DNA of 64,000 nucleotides from an uncultured Candidatus Saccharibacteria bacterium (GTDB taxonomy: Bacteria > Patescibacteriota > Minisyncoccia > Phycocordibacterales > UBA918): positions 866 through 64,865 of the forward strand of contig CAYRMI010000001.1 of the NCBI GenBank assembly GCA_964425625.1. Direction: 5' to 3'. How positions within the stretch are numbered: position 1 is the first letter of the stretch; each line of letters starts with the position of its first letter. Below, one piece after another: positions 36,956 through 40,621 of this stretch. The translations under genes were made by a program, and so were the position numbers. A model generated the notes under the pieces. The model was not told the DNA's origin and ran no database searches. It was given only the letters and a program-made list of their open reading frames with translations.

Positions 36956-38302
36956 ATGAATTTTGATCATCAGAAGACTATTTACCGAGATTTTGATATT
37001 AGAGGTAAATATCCCGAAGAAATTACTGACGAAGAAGTCTATAAAATAGCTAAGGCTTTAACATTACATTTTTCAGTTAAAAATGTAGCTGTCGGTTATG
37101 ATATTAGACCTTCAGCTAGCAGTTTATTCTCTGCTCTATCACGTGGTTTTATGGAAAGTGGCGTTAATGTCATAGACCTTGGTCTTTGTACTACCCCTAT
37201 GTCCTACTACATGTGTGGCTCGACTAGTGTCGACATGACTGTCATGATTACCGCTTCGCATATGCCGAGTGATTACAACGGTCTAAAAATTACTGTTGAG
37301 GATGCCAAACCAGTGACTAGTGATGTTTTACAAATTATTCGCGGTATTGTCGGCACCCACACTTTTTCTGAAGAAGTAATGCACGGCACGCTAACTACTC
37401 ATGCTTTGCAAGAGGATTGGATTAAAAAATTTAAGCAAAAGCATGATTTAGTTGGTTCCGGACTATCAGTGGTTATTGACCCAGCTAATATGATTGGTAT
37501 TTTGGAGATTGATACTTTTCGCGCCTTTGAACCAGATATAACTGTCCATACTATCTTTGATACCTATGACCACACTTGTCCAAATCATGAGGCTAACCCA
37601 ATCAAACATGAAGCCTTAGCTTCACTTGGTGAAGAGGTGGTTTGTCGTAAAGCTGATCTTGGAGTAGCCTTCGATGGTGATGCAGATCGAGTTGGATTTG
37701 TAGATGAAAACGGTCGACCAATTGCTAGTGATTTAATTGGCGCCTTGCTAGCTAGATATGTCTTGACTGAACATCCTGGCGCTACTATTGTTTGTGATAT
37801 TCGTTCCTCACGTTGTGTGGTTGAAGAAATCGAAAGATTAGGTGGTAAGGCAGTACGTGAAAAAGTTGGGCATACTCATATTCGTCATCGTATGCGCCAA
37901 GAGAATGCTGTATTAGGGATTGAGCTATCTGGCCATTTCTTTTTCAAACAATCATACTTCTCGGAAGGTGGCCCTTTACCGGCTTTTATTATTATGGAAA
38001 TCATGACTAAAGAGAAAAAGCCACTAAGTACCCTAGTCGCGGAAGTAAAAAAATATTATCAAAGCGGTGAAATTAATAGTACTATCACTCGCACTACGGC
38101 AGAAATATACACTGACTTAGAAAATGAATTTTCTGGATTAACTATAACTAGGCAGGACGGTCTCTCGATTGAAGCCAAGGATTGGTGGTGCAATGTACGA
38201 CCTTCAGCCAATGACCCGGTGATGCGATTGAATTTGGAGGCTGAGAATAAAAGCCTGATGGAAGAAAAGCGTGACGCTATACTAAAAATCATACGCGCCT
38301 AA
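36956..38302 (+). CDS. phosphoglucomutase/phosphomannomutase-family protein
   Basis: 448 aa; phosphoserine loop TASHMPSDYNGLK, Mg loop GVAFDGDADR, sugar-binding loop GIELSGH. Confidence 0.8.
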   Translation: MNFDHQKTIYRDFDIRGKYPEEITDEEVYKIAKALTLHFSVKNVAVGYDIRPSASSLFSALSRGFMESGVNVIDLGLCTTPMSYYMCGSTSVDMTVMITASHMPSDYNGLKITVEDAKPVTSDVLQIIRGIVGTHTFSEEVMHGTLTTHALQEDWIKKFKQKHDLVGSGLSVVIDPANMIGILEIDTFRAFEPDITVHTIFDTYDHTCPNHEANPIKHEALASLGEEVVCRKADLGVAFDGDADRVGFVDENGRPIASDLIGALLARYVLTEHPGATIVCDIRSSRCVVEEIERLGGKAVREKVGHTHIRHRMRQENAVLGIELSGHFFFKQSYFSEGGPLPAFIIMEIMTKEKKPLSTLVAEVKKYYQSGEINSTITRTTAEIYTDLENEFSGLTITRQDGLSIEAKDWWCNVRPSANDPVMRLNLEAENKSLMEEKRDAILKIIRA

Positions 38303-38311
38303 AAGATTAAT

Positions 38312-38848
38312 GACTCTAGGGAAATGATCGTGACGGTCACCAACGTATTTTATTTCGTTTCTCATAAAATACGTGATGCCACGGGACACACCTCACTCGC
38401 CTACTGCATCGTTCCGGCGGCTCGATTCCCACGCAAGGTGCACAGGCACCTTGCTCTAGAGCCGACAAACAAAAAATGCGCCCGCAGGCGCTCTTTTCTG
38501 TACTCGTGGACTCTAGGGGAATCGGTCACTCTCGTGGATATTTCTGTTCTCCGCCGACTGGCGGATCTTATAATATCTCACTCCATCGACCCGCACTCGC
38601 GTTGGCCCTAAAGGGACCCCGAAACTGTCTTTCGATTCCCCTAGAGTCTCACAAACGGCAACGACCGTGAAGCTATCGGGGGAATCGGTCACTCTCGTGG
38701 ATATTTCTGTTCGCTTCGCTCCAAAAATACCTCACTCGCTCGACCCCCACTCGCGTCGGCCCAGAGGGGCCCCGACGCTTCGGTTCGATTCCCCTAGAGT
38801 CTCACAATGACAAACGACCACGACACTTTGTGTCGTGGTCGGTCATTG
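38312..38848. repeat. GC-rich hairpin-dense repeat locus 1: three diverged units (38312..38433; 38506..38653; 38678..38806), each bounded by inverted partial copies of the tRNA-Ala(GGC) 3' end, plus conserved hairpins and an internal terminator
   Basis: Copies of the tRNA 3' end in tRNA orientation: GTGGACTCTAGGGGAATCG at 38506..38524, shorter copies at 38312..38321 and 38678..38688. Inverted copies: TTCGATTCCCCTAGAGTCTCACA at 38631..38653 and 38784..38806, and GCTCGATTCCC at 38420..38430. The units align to each other and to locus 2. Confidence 0.7.
38469..38498. terminator. bidirectional intrinsic terminator inside repeat locus 1
   Basis: AAAAAA-TGCGCC-CGCA-GGCGCT-CTTTTCT; homologous in position to the terminator at 40452..40486, but with a different stem sequence. 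Confidence 0.55.
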
Positions 38849-38921
38849 TGGACTCTAGGGGAATCGAACCCCTTACCTCTTCCATGCCATGGAAGCGCTC
38901 TACCAAATGAGCTAAGAGCCC
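38849..38921 (-). tRNA. tRNA-Ala (anticodon GGC)
   Basis: Minus strand: GGGCTCT-TA-GCTC-ATTTGGT-AGAGC-G-CTTCC-ATGGCAT-GGAAG-AGGTA-AGGGG-TTCGATT-CCCCT-AGAGTCC-A. All four arms pair; G3:U70 alanine identity pair present; CCA not encoded. Confidence 0.85.
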
Positions 38922-38941
38922 GTCATTAAAACAACTTGAGC

Positions 38942-38968
38942 ATTATACGCACTTTTTATAAAATTCAA
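38942..38968 (-). promoter_or_regulatory. candidate sigma-70-type promoter for tRNA-Ala(GGC)
   Basis: Minus strand TTGAAT-N15-TATAAT ending about 20 nt upstream of the tRNA 5' end. Confidence 0.35.
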
Positions 38969-38971
38969 AGT

Positions 38972-40006
38972 CTATTCACTGGCTAATTTAACGCCGAAAA
39001 ACTCTTCGCCAGACTGCCACTGCTTAATATTATTAACAGTTGTTTCAGTAATTTCTCGCTTTGCTTCCTTGGTATTGAAGGCCATATGAGGAGTCATGAC
39101 GACATTTGGCATATCCAAAAGCTCATGTTCCGCAGCAAAAGCGCGCCAGATTTGCATATTAAGCTCTTCCTTTGCATCTACTAGCTTTAGTTCATCTTTT
39201 AGATATTCTTCTCCTTCATAAACATCTAGCCCTGCCCCTTTAAGTTGACCTGACTTTAAAGCATGAATTAAAGCCACTGTATCTATAAGACTACCTCTGG
39301 CTGTGTTTATCACGTAAGCCCCGGTTTTAGCTTTAGCAATAGTATTTTCATTCAATAAATGATGGTTTTCTGCTGTAGCTGGAACATGTAGGGTAATGAT
39401 ATCAGAAGCACCCAAAACGGTTTCCAATGATCCATATTGTATGTTAAATCGTGATGCAAACTCGTAGTCAGGATATAAGTCAAACGCCATAACATTCATG
39501 TGAAAACCACGCGCTATTTCACAAACTCTTTTACCAATTGCGCCCGTACCGATTACGCCAATAGTTTTTTCTGATAGATCAAATCCCTCATGCACTGTTA
39601 CGTCAATTTCACCACTAATACGTAATAACTCATACATTGAATTAATTTTTCGCGACAAAGTGAGAATGAGCGCGAAGGTATGTTCGGCCACAGTCTGTGA
39701 CCCATAGTGAGGGACATATGAAACTTGAATACCTTTTGCATTTGCATGAGCGACATCCACATGGTCATAGCCGGTAGATCGCAAAGCAATATGTTTGAGG
39801 CTTGGCATTTCATCAATCATCTTGGCCGATAACCGTGAATTTACAAAGATAGATAATACTTCACAATCACGTATTACTTCTGGCAGACCGTCAGACTCAC
39901 CAATCGTGTCTCCGTAAAGGATAATTTCATGGTTAGGTAATAGTTCTCTTACAATAGATTCTTCATTTAGATATGGTGTTATGTAGGCGATTTTCATAGG
40001 ATTCAA
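38972..40006 (-). CDS. D-isomer-specific 2-hydroxyacid dehydrogenase (D-lactate dehydrogenase-like)
   Basis: 344 aa; NAD-binding GxGxxG (IGVIGTGAIGKRV), catalytic R/E/H triad region typical of the D-2-HDH family. Confidence 0.75.
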   Translation of the reverse strand: MNPMKIAYITPYLNEESIVRELLPNHEIILYGDTIGESDGLPEVIRDCEVLSIFVNSRLSAKMIDEMPSLKHIALRSTGYDHVDVAHANAKGIQVSYVPHYGSQTVAEHTFALILTLSRKINSMYELLRISGEIDVTVHEGFDLSEKTIGVIGTGAIGKRVCEIARGFHMNVMAFDLYPDYEFASRFNIQYGSLETVLGASDIITLHVPATAENHHLLNENTIAKAKTGAYVINTARGSLIDTVALIHALKSGQLKGAGLDVYEGEEYLKDELKLVDAKEELNMQIWRAFAAEHELLDMPNVVMTPHMAFNTKEAKREITETTVNNIKQWQSGEEFFGVKLASE

Positions 40007-40054
40007 AGTATAACATTTTTTGTTGTCCTGTGTTTTGAACGTGTTTAAAATTTA

Positions 40055-40081
40055 AAGCCACAAAGCTTTGCTTTGTGGCTT
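40055..40081 (-). terminator. 12-bp perfect hairpin between repeat locus 2 and the dehydrogenase gene
   Basis: AAGCCACAAAGC-TTTG-CTTTGTGGCTT; A/T-rich flank on the minus strand. Confidence 0.4.
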
Positions 40082-40090
40082 AACATTACT

Positions 40091-40486
40091 AGAAGATTCG
40101 GTCACGAATCACTAAGTATATTAGTTCTCCGCCAGCTGGCGGATCCGACTCCTAATTTACTAAGTGTTCTTGACCACGACTCGCCGGCCCAAAGGGTCCC
40201 CGGCTCCGTCTTTCGAATCTTCTCTGGTCGCAAAACGGTAAAGACCGTAAACACTTTCGTGTTTACGGTCTTTACCGTTTGTGGACCAGAGAATTCATCC
40301 TGACGGTCACCGACGTACTTTGCTCCAAGTTTTCGCAAAGATACGTGGTGCCGCGGGACACGCCTCGACTGTCGTACTCGCTCCGCTCCGTGCGACCTGT
40401 CTCCGGCGTTCGAATCTTCACGTAAAGTGTCTACACACTTTACTTCTGGTCCAAACAAAAAACCGCTAAAGCGGTTTTTTGTTTTG
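40091..40486. repeat. GC-rich hairpin-dense repeat locus 2: two units homologous to locus 1 (40091..40229 and 40281..40419), a 22-bp perfect hairpin (40233..40280), a short hairpin (40422..40443) and a terminator (40452..40486)
   Basis: Unit ends are inverted partial copies of the adjacent tRNA-Ala(UGC) 3' end (AGAAGATTCG at 40091 and GTGGACCAGAGAA at 40281, against TTCGAATCTTCTCTGGTC at 40212..40229 and TTCGAATCTTC at 40409..40419). Unit bodies align with locus 1 (TTCTCCGCC-AGCT-GGCGGATC vs TTCTCCGCC-GACT-GGCGGATC; TGACGGTCACC-GACGTA...GGGACACGCCTC vs TGACGGTCACC-AACGTA...GGGACACACCTC). Confidence 0.7.
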
Positions 40487-40559
40487 TGGACCAGAGAAGA
40501 TTCGAACTCCCTGCCTCCTCAGTGCAAATGAGGCGCTCTACCAAGTGAGCTACTGGCCC
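40487..40559 (-). tRNA. tRNA-Ala (anticodon UGC)
   Basis: Minus strand: GGGCCAG-TA-GCTC-ACTTGGT-AGAGC-G-CCTCA-TTTGCAC-TGAGG-AGGCA-GGGAG-TTCGAAT-CTTCT-CTGGTCC-A. G3:U70 present; T-stem contains two G:U pairs; CCA not encoded; intrinsic terminator immediately 3' on the minus strand. Confidence 0.8.
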
Positions 40560-40592
40560 AACCATACTTTACTTCCAAACTGAAAGTAGCAC

Positions 40593-40621
40593 TATGATAA
40601 TAGAAGTTGGCTAGAAGTCAA
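40593..40621 (-). promoter_or_regulatory. candidate sigma-70-type promoter for tRNA-Ala(UGC)
   Basis: Minus strand TTGACT-N16-TATCAT about 33 nt upstream of the tRNA 5' end. Confidence 0.3.

Follow-up and report, generated by a model that had tools for sequence, protein, structure and literature searches.

Structured repeat units matched to tRNA 3′ ends: a candidate family of gene-less mobile cassettes in a Saccharibacteria contig

This work concerns an array of structured repeat units that lies 3′ of a tRNA gene in an uncultured Candidatus Saccharibacteria bacterium (Patescibacteriota; assembly GCA_964425625.1, contig CAYRMI010000001.1, positions 866 to 64,865). We call this 64-kb stretch the window. 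It carries two tRNA genes, both on the minus strand and both found by ARAGORN and Rfam: tRNA-Ala(GGC) at 38848-38921 and tRNA-Ala(UGC) at 40486-40559. The array at the former is referred to as locus 1 and the array at the latter, our main subject, as locus 2. In both, each unit has a hairpin or terminator as its spacer, and its structured core is enclosed by two copies of the tRNA 3′ end, the first inverted and the second direct. Behind its spacer, the unit starts with the reverse complement of the last ~20 nt of the tRNA and continues with the core; it ends with a direct copy of the 3′ half of the T-loop, the 3′ strand of the T-stem, the 3′ strand of the acceptor, the discriminator, and a few trailer bases. 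The boundary between what derives from the target tRNA and what the unit itself carries falls directly after the discriminator base. The initial annotation of this DNA had recognized two units and three hairpins between a 2-hydroxyacid dehydrogenase gene and tRNA-Ala(UGC). That description stands, with two corrections: the units are oriented like the tRNA, on the minus strand, and the terminator and the long hairpin are the spacers of the units that follow them.

Locus 2 (40089-40485) contains a type A unit, A2 (40281-40453), and a type B unit, B3 (40089-40232), both on the minus strand like the tRNA. Read along the tRNA strand, the order is tRNA, terminator-like palindrome, A2, 22-bp hairpin, B3, terminator-like hairpin. 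The anchor, tRNA-Ala(UGC) (Rfam tRNA, 62.4 bits), is the source of the arm copies through its last ~20 nt (TTCGAATCTTCTCTGGTCCA), and a promoter-like site stands by it on the minus strand at 40594-40621. Directly 3′ of the tRNA is the A2 spacer (40453-40485), in which an A-tract, a hairpin, and a T-tract make up a bidirectional palindrome resembling an intrinsic terminator (inverted repeat I10, 15/15). The left arm of A2 comes in two parts, recognized from sequence and arm alignment: the reverse complement of the acceptor 3′ strand at 40444-40452 and that of the T-loop and T-stem 3′ strand at 40408-40419 (I15). H1 (40422-40443), a 9-bp stem with a 4-nt loop, divides the arm exactly between these parts, and its position is conserved, with varied stem sequences, in about 24 of 33 family members. 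The A2 core (40297-40407) holds helices P2 and P3 and the invariant blocks GCCGGAG, GAGGCGTGTCCCGCGGCACCA, and GGTGACCGTCAGGA. It is defined by covariation and by a match of our covariance model R1 at 40285-40422 (89.4 bits, E = 4e-20). The right arm (40281-40296) repeats the tRNA 3′ end and trailer in direct orientation, apart from a 2-nt deletion (GAATTCTCTGGTCCAC).

The B3 spacer (40233-40280) is a perfect 22-bp hairpin with a GAAA loop (I1), which also appears in minimum-free-energy (MFE) folds and is homologous to the hairpin before unit B2 of locus 1 (38803-38850). Together with its flanking arms it forms a palindrome with 35-nt arms (40220-40293). The left arm of B3 (40212-40229) is a perfect 18-nt reverse complement of the tRNA-Ala(UGC) 3′ end. 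Its core (40101-40211) joins a P2 module such as some A units have to a B-type P3 (GTGGTCAAGAACACTTAGT...ACTTAGTGATTCGTGACC, tip TCCGCC-AGCT-GGCGGA), as judged from B-type relatives and an R1 match at 40088-40225 (55.8 bits, E = 2e-11). The right arm (40089-40100), a 10-nt partial direct copy of the T-loop and T-stem, marks the end of the array. The unit ends correspond to tRNA-Ala(UGC), as initially proposed, with the qualification that the distal arm of B3 is only partial. A terminator-like hairpin (40055-40081; I9) separates the array from the dehydrogenase gene (38972-39997); all of these features are on the minus strand.

Locus 1 (38312-38921, minus strand, tRNA included) is a sister array in which all arms fit tRNA-Ala(GGC). 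From the tRNA outward it comprises the hairpin at 38803-38850, B2 (38670-38801), a truncated spacer (38649-38669), B1 (38507-38648), a terminator (38465-38506), and A1 (38312-38464). Spacer type tracks the following unit: a terminator stands before A1 and A2, and a ACACTTTSGTGT-tipped hairpin stands before B2 and B3. The A2 terminator has homologues before A1 and before A units in three contigs of relatives, L163, L206, and L184 (such handles designate the contigs compared). The region has a G+C content of 50-58%, versus about 40% in the background, and folds far more stably than shuffled sequence (z = −12.6 as RNA, −15.8 as DNA).

A repeat search and a common model bear out the relationship between the two loci. 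All of the strings quoted in the initial annotation are present at their positions. Within the 64 kb, the shared pattern TTCTCCGCC-NNNN-GGCGGATC has exactly two occurrences, at 38547 and 40125 (0.03 expected by chance), as has TGACGGTCACCRACGTA, at 38331 and 40301 (0.08 expected by chance). The repeat search recovered the long in-register matches between the loci (D1, D5, D7 at 82%, D8 at 86%, D9 at 83%) together with end copies of both tRNAs. Those of tRNA-Ala(UGC) are I5 (inverted, 18/18, 40212-40229) and D12 (direct, 16/16, 40278-40293), and those of tRNA-Ala(GGC) are I2, I4, I6, and I7; the direct partial tRNA copies in the window are D12 and D10. A single model built from type A cores matches A2 (89 bits), A1 (89), B3 (56), and B2 (32), all on the tRNA strand. 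In local alignment, each of the 10 arms in the five units matches its own tRNA with a better score than it does the other tRNA-Ala (for example, 18 versus 6 for the B3 left arm and 19 versus 7 for the B1 right arm). The three annotated hairpins, H1, the A2 terminator, and the 22-bp stem, are real. Thus, the claims that the loci belong to one family, that unit ends are re-matched to the local tRNA, and that stems are kept by compensatory change are supported, the last of these by the family as a whole.

For that family, 31 distinct A cores were placed in a structural alignment, which describes a three-helix core closed by the arms. Standard pairs make up 92.3% of its paired cells, compared with 33-40% after the partners are offset by 1-3 columns. 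Double-change cells number 145, against 39.5 in shuffled alignments (reached in 0 of 500 shuffles), and 21 of 44 pairs have changed on both sides, against 16.1 (reached in 4 of 500). On the tRNA-sense strand, P2 and P3 contain 53 G:U pairs, plus 31 invariant ones, versus 8 A:C mismatches. This excess indicates that the tRNA strand is the one that folds, as RNA or as single-stranded DNA; a comparison of MFE between strands did not discriminate, and the alignment-based count did. R1 yields 60 matches, and each one that adjoins an identifiable tRNA or tmRNA gene shares the orientation of that gene. Types A and B have in common the arm module, the P2 module, and the P3 tip and differ in lower P3. 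Judged by these sequences, the family is a mosaic.

Pairing extends beyond the single unit. For 24 of 32 units, the better partner of the inverted arm is the preceding tRNA-end copy with its trailer, rather than the unit's own direct copy. The best-kept pairing is accordingly not within units but joins the inverted arm to the preceding copy across the spacer hairpin, and the MFE fold of the whole locus uses the long inter-unit hairpin. Comparison of arm scores with R1 matches shows that distal arms have decayed while their cores were retained. Two further observations concern the modules. For contigs L188/L184 and L189/L198, P3 and arms are the same while the P2 module differs, a module swap. 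The commonest P3 tip in A units is GCGAAGC (e.g., L185 and L206), which is found in the window as well (38717-38723, in B2). This is the sequence of the unusually stable DNA mini-hairpin and hints weakly at single-stranded DNA as the folded form.

Syntenic loci were reached through homologues of the neighboring genes, and they show units to be present in patches. In L163, whose dehydrogenase is 74% identical, an A unit follows tRNA-Ala(GGC) at 75% nucleotide identity; its arms have changed to the tRNA end of its own species (CCTAAGGTCCA), and its hairpin stems are different yet paired. L160 (dehydrogenase 75% identical) has only a diverged element, and L169 (69% identical) has none. More widely, a strict two-block core pattern finds 38 metagenome loci and no match in viral contigs. 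The A core follows tRNAs for Thr, Gln (two anticodons), His, Arg (two anticodons), Ala, Phe, Tyr, and Gly, as well as tmRNA, and other arm-matched or B-type units follow tRNAs for Asp, Trp, and Leu. The arms fit the local gene throughout, over at least 13 tRNA species plus tmRNA. Units occur at two or three different tRNAs on single contigs, each with matched arms (the window, L177, L179, L196, and L204). In about 28 tRNA or tmRNA loci, direct 14-nt copies of the tRNA end lie 136-381 nt downstream, mostly about 180-220 nt.

Some of these loci deserve separate mention. The A units of L184 and L188 lie 3′ of tmRNA (L188:248-641, minus strand), and their arms fit the tmRNA 3′ end (CCCCATCTCCAC). 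The genes for tRNA-Trp, tRNA-Asp, and tRNA-Leu have copies of their own 3′ ends, direct or inverted, 44-155 nt downstream (L204:4764-4985, plus strand; L179:6200-6453, minus strand; L196:5382-5530, plus strand). At least the tRNA-Trp unit has a core that R1 does not detect, which implies that further cassette types exist. A few units have no intact tRNA immediately upstream: L179:5238-5363 (+), L180:2033-2155 (+), which equals L203:11630-11752 (−), L190:9370-9487 (−), and L200:191-308 (−). In the first, the 5′ part of tRNA-Thr seems to have been replaced. The L180/L203 and L190 units keep only a tRNA-His-like 3′ end in their arms. The L200 unit is distal in its array, with an unrecognizable left arm; an intact tRNA-His stands at 1101-1173, and a B unit lies between.

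Spacers, unit order, and cargo all bear on how the arrays behave. A CGAGYACAAAA...TTTTTGTTCGTG terminator precedes the A unit at tRNA-Ala(GGC) in L163 and L206 and also occurs at tmRNA in L184; its homologue in the window has diverged (CGAGTACAGAAAA...TTTTTTGTTTGTC). Another spacer, AAATCAGC...GCTGTTTG, is found at tRNAs for His, Tyr, and Arg; variants of it occur behind the A unit of a tRNA-Gly and at a second tRNA for Arg. Because the same spacers stand at different tRNAs, the sequence of a cassette begins directly after the discriminator. The order of units also varies: L163 has tRNA, terminator, A, hairpin, B, whereas L206 and the window have tRNA, hairpin, one or two B units, terminator, A. 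This difference would be the expected outcome of inserting a block of spacer, inverted arm, core, and direct arm at a direct copy of the tRNA end.

Arrays at tRNA-His hold protein genes in addition (L207:9780-11390, plus strand; L209:8550-2400, L177:6900-6060, and L190:8154-8230, minus strand). Named by reading the sequence only, they include a GNAT acetyltransferase, an EamA transporter, an APH-like kinase, a 2H phosphoesterase, an S-adenosylmethionine (SAM) methyltransferase, and a HAD-like hydrolase. Most of these protein genes are preceded by a terminator and a degenerate inverted arm. The 3′ ends of the cassettes carry a conserved 28-nt motif that resembles a tRNA end (AGTTCTAACNTCNTCNACGACGNCGCCCA); L207 and L209 have two copies each and L177 has one, and a close variant occurs in L190. 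Where the start of a cassette gene was read, the ATG directly follows an extended −10 element of the TGATATACT type, and such genes look leaderless. An 838-bp block with the SAM methyltransferase is common to L207 (10550-11387) and L209 (3867-3031) at 88.4% identity; its flanks are unrelated, and it stops exactly at the 28-nt motif. Thus, cassettes have been shuffled between arrays, both in the varying unit order of L163, L206, and the window and in the methyltransferase cassette.

Our preferred interpretation, held with moderate confidence, is that locus 2 is a two-member array (A2 and B3) of small mobile cassettes that carry no genes, are non-autonomous, and use the last ~17-20 nt of tRNA and tmRNA genes as their integration site. 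The family is widespread and apparently undescribed. This interpretation draws its support from the unit architecture and arm matching, the host range, the several targets per genome, the cassette-borne spacers, the differences in order, the patchy presence, the decay of distal arms beside retained cores, the pairing across spacers, the protein cassettes, the covariation and G:U excess of the core, and the lack of a coding frame and of any match in the Rfam, phage, plasmid, and viral collections. Under such a scheme, a cassette would enter by recombination at a direct copy of the tRNA end, either that of the tRNA itself or that of a resident cassette. The newcomer would shift older cassettes distally and give the tRNA a new terminator. 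By analogy with attC sites in integrons and with the attP of CTX phage, which serves for dif, the preceding tRNA-end copy, the spacer, and the inverted copy would, in single-stranded form, most likely make a hairpin with a stem that imitates the double-stranded target. The choice of target would then reside in the arms of the cassette, and the enzyme would act in trans.

More tentatively, the arrays may be a gene-capture platform of bacteria of the Candidate Phyla Radiation (CPR) type, integron-like and built on tRNA and tmRNA 3′ ends. The arms would fold or guide so as to imitate or read the target, and one trans-acting machinery would insert the same scaffold behind any tRNA. This would amount to nucleic-acid-programmed integration with no linked integrase.

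Several observations weigh against mobility. First, no recombinase, transposase, or reverse transcriptase is present among the open reading frames (ORFs) of the window scanned with Pfam, and none recurs among 150 non-redundant ORFs neighboring the units, where the recurrent neighbors are housekeeping genes. Second, neither an excised circle nor an empty-site allele was seen within one population, and the near-identical contigs L158 and L159 carry the same array. Third, the inverted arm lies between cassette-borne sequences, so that its re-matching to a new tRNA would need a process in addition to the steps above. Finally, the G:U excess could be due in part to strand-biased mutation, and a core conserved beyond the needs of pairing, with invariant blocks, is what one would equally expect of a functional RNA or of a site bound by protein.

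The most serious rival, which we nevertheless consider somewhat unlikely, holds that the units are genes for structured noncoding RNAs mimicking the top half of the neighboring tRNA. Read-through transcripts would be cut by RNase P and RNase Z, the RNA would serve as a decoy, sponge, or regulator toward some factor that recognizes the acceptor end of that tRNA, and mobility would be secondary. The covariation of P2 and P3, the preponderance of G:U over A:C on the sense strand, the shared orientation of R1 matches and adjoining genes, the z score as RNA, and the invariant single-stranded blocks are all in keeping with this idea, as are the GNRA and UUCG loops on the sense strand. The arms are predicted to form a helix resembling acceptor plus T-stem, in which the 3′ strand, discriminator, and trailer are those of the tRNA itself; H1 leaves this helix precisely between acceptor and T-stem, the point from which the remainder of a tRNA would emerge. 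The predicted stack, with its tRNA-type 3′ strand and discriminator, recalls the tRNA-like RNAs processed by RNase P and RNase Z (mascRNA, the tRNA-like domain of tmRNA, and bacterial Y RNA), but the units have neither T-loop nor cloverleaf, and ARAGORN and the Rfam tRNA and tmRNA models found only the two true tRNAs. Against this rival, a good intrinsic terminator precedes each unit, and no promoter-like site was found inside the array. The helix that would close a unit, P1, is poorly kept distally (the B3 arms measure 18 nt versus 10 nt) and is weaker than pairing with the preceding copy in the 24 of 32 units noted above. Moreover, the arms at tRNA-Ala give A3:U70 rather than the G3:U70 that AlaRS requires, close relatives show patchy presence, and ordinary protein genes have the same boundaries.

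An unlikely reading takes the core to be a guide-type molecule, either RNA or single-stranded DNA. Its arms would read the tRNA 3′ end on both strands and direct a recombinase acting in trans, much as IS110 bridge RNAs or the exon- and intron-binding sites (EBS/IBS) of group II introns do. One conserved scaffold with arms rewritten for at least 13 targets, several targets per genome, and no target-specific integrase among the 150 neighboring ORFs would fit such a system. It rests on analogy, however, and whereas bridge RNAs have split guides, the arms here cover the same segment and are mutually complementary. Neither IS110, TnpB, nor another partner protein was found among the ORFs of the window and the neighbors; the setting of a bridge RNA or of a TnpB/IscB omega RNA, with its recombinase or nuclease gene, is absent there, and no Rfam guide-RNA family matches. 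Neither a tRNA mimic nor a guide would exclude mobility.

Equally hard to credit is that the units are passive scars, attL/attR arms left behind as ordinary islands or prophages with an integrase repeatedly inserted at tRNA genes and were deleted again. Both tRNA and tmRNA genes offer classic att sites at their 3′ ends, tRNA-Ala(GGC) is occupied by large serine recombinase elements in L166 and L169, and direct partial tRNA copies are a hallmark of such events (doi 10.1101/2020.12.28.424599). Yet the same 120-nt, covariation-supported core is found at at least 13 different tRNAs, while integrase families are target-specific. The units are complete and uniform in size, conservative site-specific integration yields no inverted copy and hairpin, and an R1 search found no unit-like sequence at the serine recombinase loci. 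Last, a recent segmental duplication of one locus from the other, or chance low-complexity similarity, might be suggested by their distance of 1.6 kb and their long shared matches, but it is highly improbable and in effect refuted: the tRNAs share only 74% identity (D2), the loci differ in the order and number of their units (A-B versus B-B-A), arm differences fall exactly at tRNA-specific positions, relatives occur in 38 unrelated metagenome contigs, and the shared patterns have the low chance expectations given above.

How does the preferred reading, mobile cassettes at tRNA ends, compare with known systems? The closest parallel is with integron arrays. As there, small independent cassettes stand in order beside one fixed anchor site, their boundaries, which are able to fold in single-stranded form, are imperfect palindromes, their cargo consists of accessory genes (acetyltransferase, kinase, methyltransferase, transporter) or nothing, and one cassette can occur in different arrays with different neighbors. 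In contrast to integrons, the anchor here is a tRNA or tmRNA 3′ end rather than attI, the palindrome arms copy the tRNA end and vary with the host gene, and protein cassettes have their own promoter and terminator. The boundaries (GTTCGAATC... and ...GATTCGAAC), which are tRNA 3′-end copies, do not fit the R″/R′ core sites of attC (RYYYAAC ... GTTRRRY), as judged by reading the sequence, and no intI tyrosine recombinase was found beside the array among the window ORFs, the neighbors named by synteny, and the 150 neighbor ORFs. The arrays are therefore integron-like in their working but lack attC core sites and a neighboring intI.

Elements that integrate at tRNA and tmRNA genes offer a second comparison; Williams reportedly sorted them into sublocation classes in 2002. 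As in such islands, the target is the segment from T-loop to 3′ end, direct partial copies flank the inserts, the tRNA stays intact, and new inserts appear to enter beside the tRNA and displace older ones. The units differ in being 10-100 times smaller (130-190 nt) and without an integrase, in using one core family for at least 13 targets where integrases are target-specific, and in adding an inverted copy and a hairpin. The units have no consistent reading frame, and no element-encoded integrase lies nearby among the window ORFs and the 150 neighbor ORFs. Tycheposons are one example of tRNA-targeting islands with direct partial tRNA copies (doi 10.1101/2020.12.28.424599).

The folded attP of CTX phage and of integrative mobile elements exploiting Xer (IMEX) likewise has two inverted target-like copies and a short spacer, foldable into a mimic of the duplex site, and an enzyme that the element does not encode. 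There, the site is dif and the enzyme XerCD; here, the site is a tRNA end, and the single-stranded form is a prediction. Miniature inverted-repeat transposable elements (MITEs) are also small, noncoding, and strongly structured, with terminal inverted repeats, many copies, and a trans-acting enzyme. Our units differ from them in that their terminal repeats equal the adjacent target (I5-I7) and are not element-specific, and in that insertion is strictly site- and orientation-specific; no autonomous parent transposon was found in the loci compared, whole genomes not having been searched. We did not find such candidate site-specific integrative cassettes described in Rfam 15 or in the literature searched.

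At the gathering score, Rfam 15 matches only the two tRNAs; with E values up to 10 on 38250-40620, it gives chance-level matches only, including a generic long-hairpin match to a plant miRNA model. Phage and plasmid collections contain no match to the units. The 16-nt pattern TGACGGTCACCNACGTA, which is too short, returned only chance matches among those listed for a genome collection (in GC-rich genomes) and for viral contigs. The literature searched contained no description of such cassettes.

If the cassettes are mobile, very small genomes that seemingly lack the usual mobile elements would gain genes by a route not described so far. The cassettes would also provide a third recombination site built by folding, after integron attC and CTX attP, and one that is rewritten for each target. 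If the arms set the site of integration, they would be of practical interest for programmable insertion. Should the units be RNAs, they would make up a large new family that mimics tRNA ends. Either way, they account for odd GC-rich intergenic repeats and spurious ORF calls by tRNA genes in many metagenome-assembled genomes, and R1 can be used to annotate them.

Several other explanations were tried and rejected. A protein-coding reading of the ORFs at 40102-40458 (minus strand) and 38324-38611 (plus strand) fails since the frame is not conserved in relatives and length differences are not multiples of 3. Target-site duplication with fold-back synthesis through the tRNA's own terminator was discarded because the spacer hairpins are cassette-specific, not derived from the target. 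A retrovirus-like primer-binding site copied from mature tRNA was set aside because the copies carry the genomic trailer and lack the CCA complement. IS91, IS200/IS605, casposons, CRISPR, and repetitive extragenic palindromes or bacterial interspersed mosaic elements (REP/BIME) have ends or targets that do not fit. The two ORFs of the window and that at L158:2046-2342 cross the units and encode 95-118 amino acids, and one is annotated as a gene in the public record; they are very likely spurious.

The Pfam-scanned ORFs of the window are housekeeping genes, among them RpoA, AlaRS, LeuRS, MnmA, YceG, UvrB, Tgt, and DUF5671, or have no match, and the immediate neighbors, PMM, Ddl, and an RND pump, were named through synteny with annotated relatives. 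DUF5671, the small AlaRS, and an origin in groundwater samples from 0.1-0.2 µm filters point to a CPR/Patescibacteria-like taxon. Strains L160, L161, and L162 show only a small variable or N-gap spot and no clean presence/absence allele. Their dehydrogenase proteins and flanks are identical, and one short element segment 3′ of tRNA-Ala(GGC) differs (L160:4000-4090, L161:1450-1560, L162:1450-1500), with the N gap in L161. Small ORFs of LAGLIDADG type and helix-turn-helix (HTH) type (Pfam LAGLIDADG_3 and HTH_23) stand by unit-bearing tRNAs at L177:431-1096 (plus strand) and L181:701-1384 (minus strand), with related ones in L173 and L179; no consistent linkage to the units was established. In relatives, large serine recombinase genes adjoin or overlap tRNA-Ala(GGC) (L166:1768-3399, minus strand, and the same in L167; L169:4349-4768, plus strand), and A and B units are absent there. 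This tRNA gene is thus also a conventional integration hot spot.

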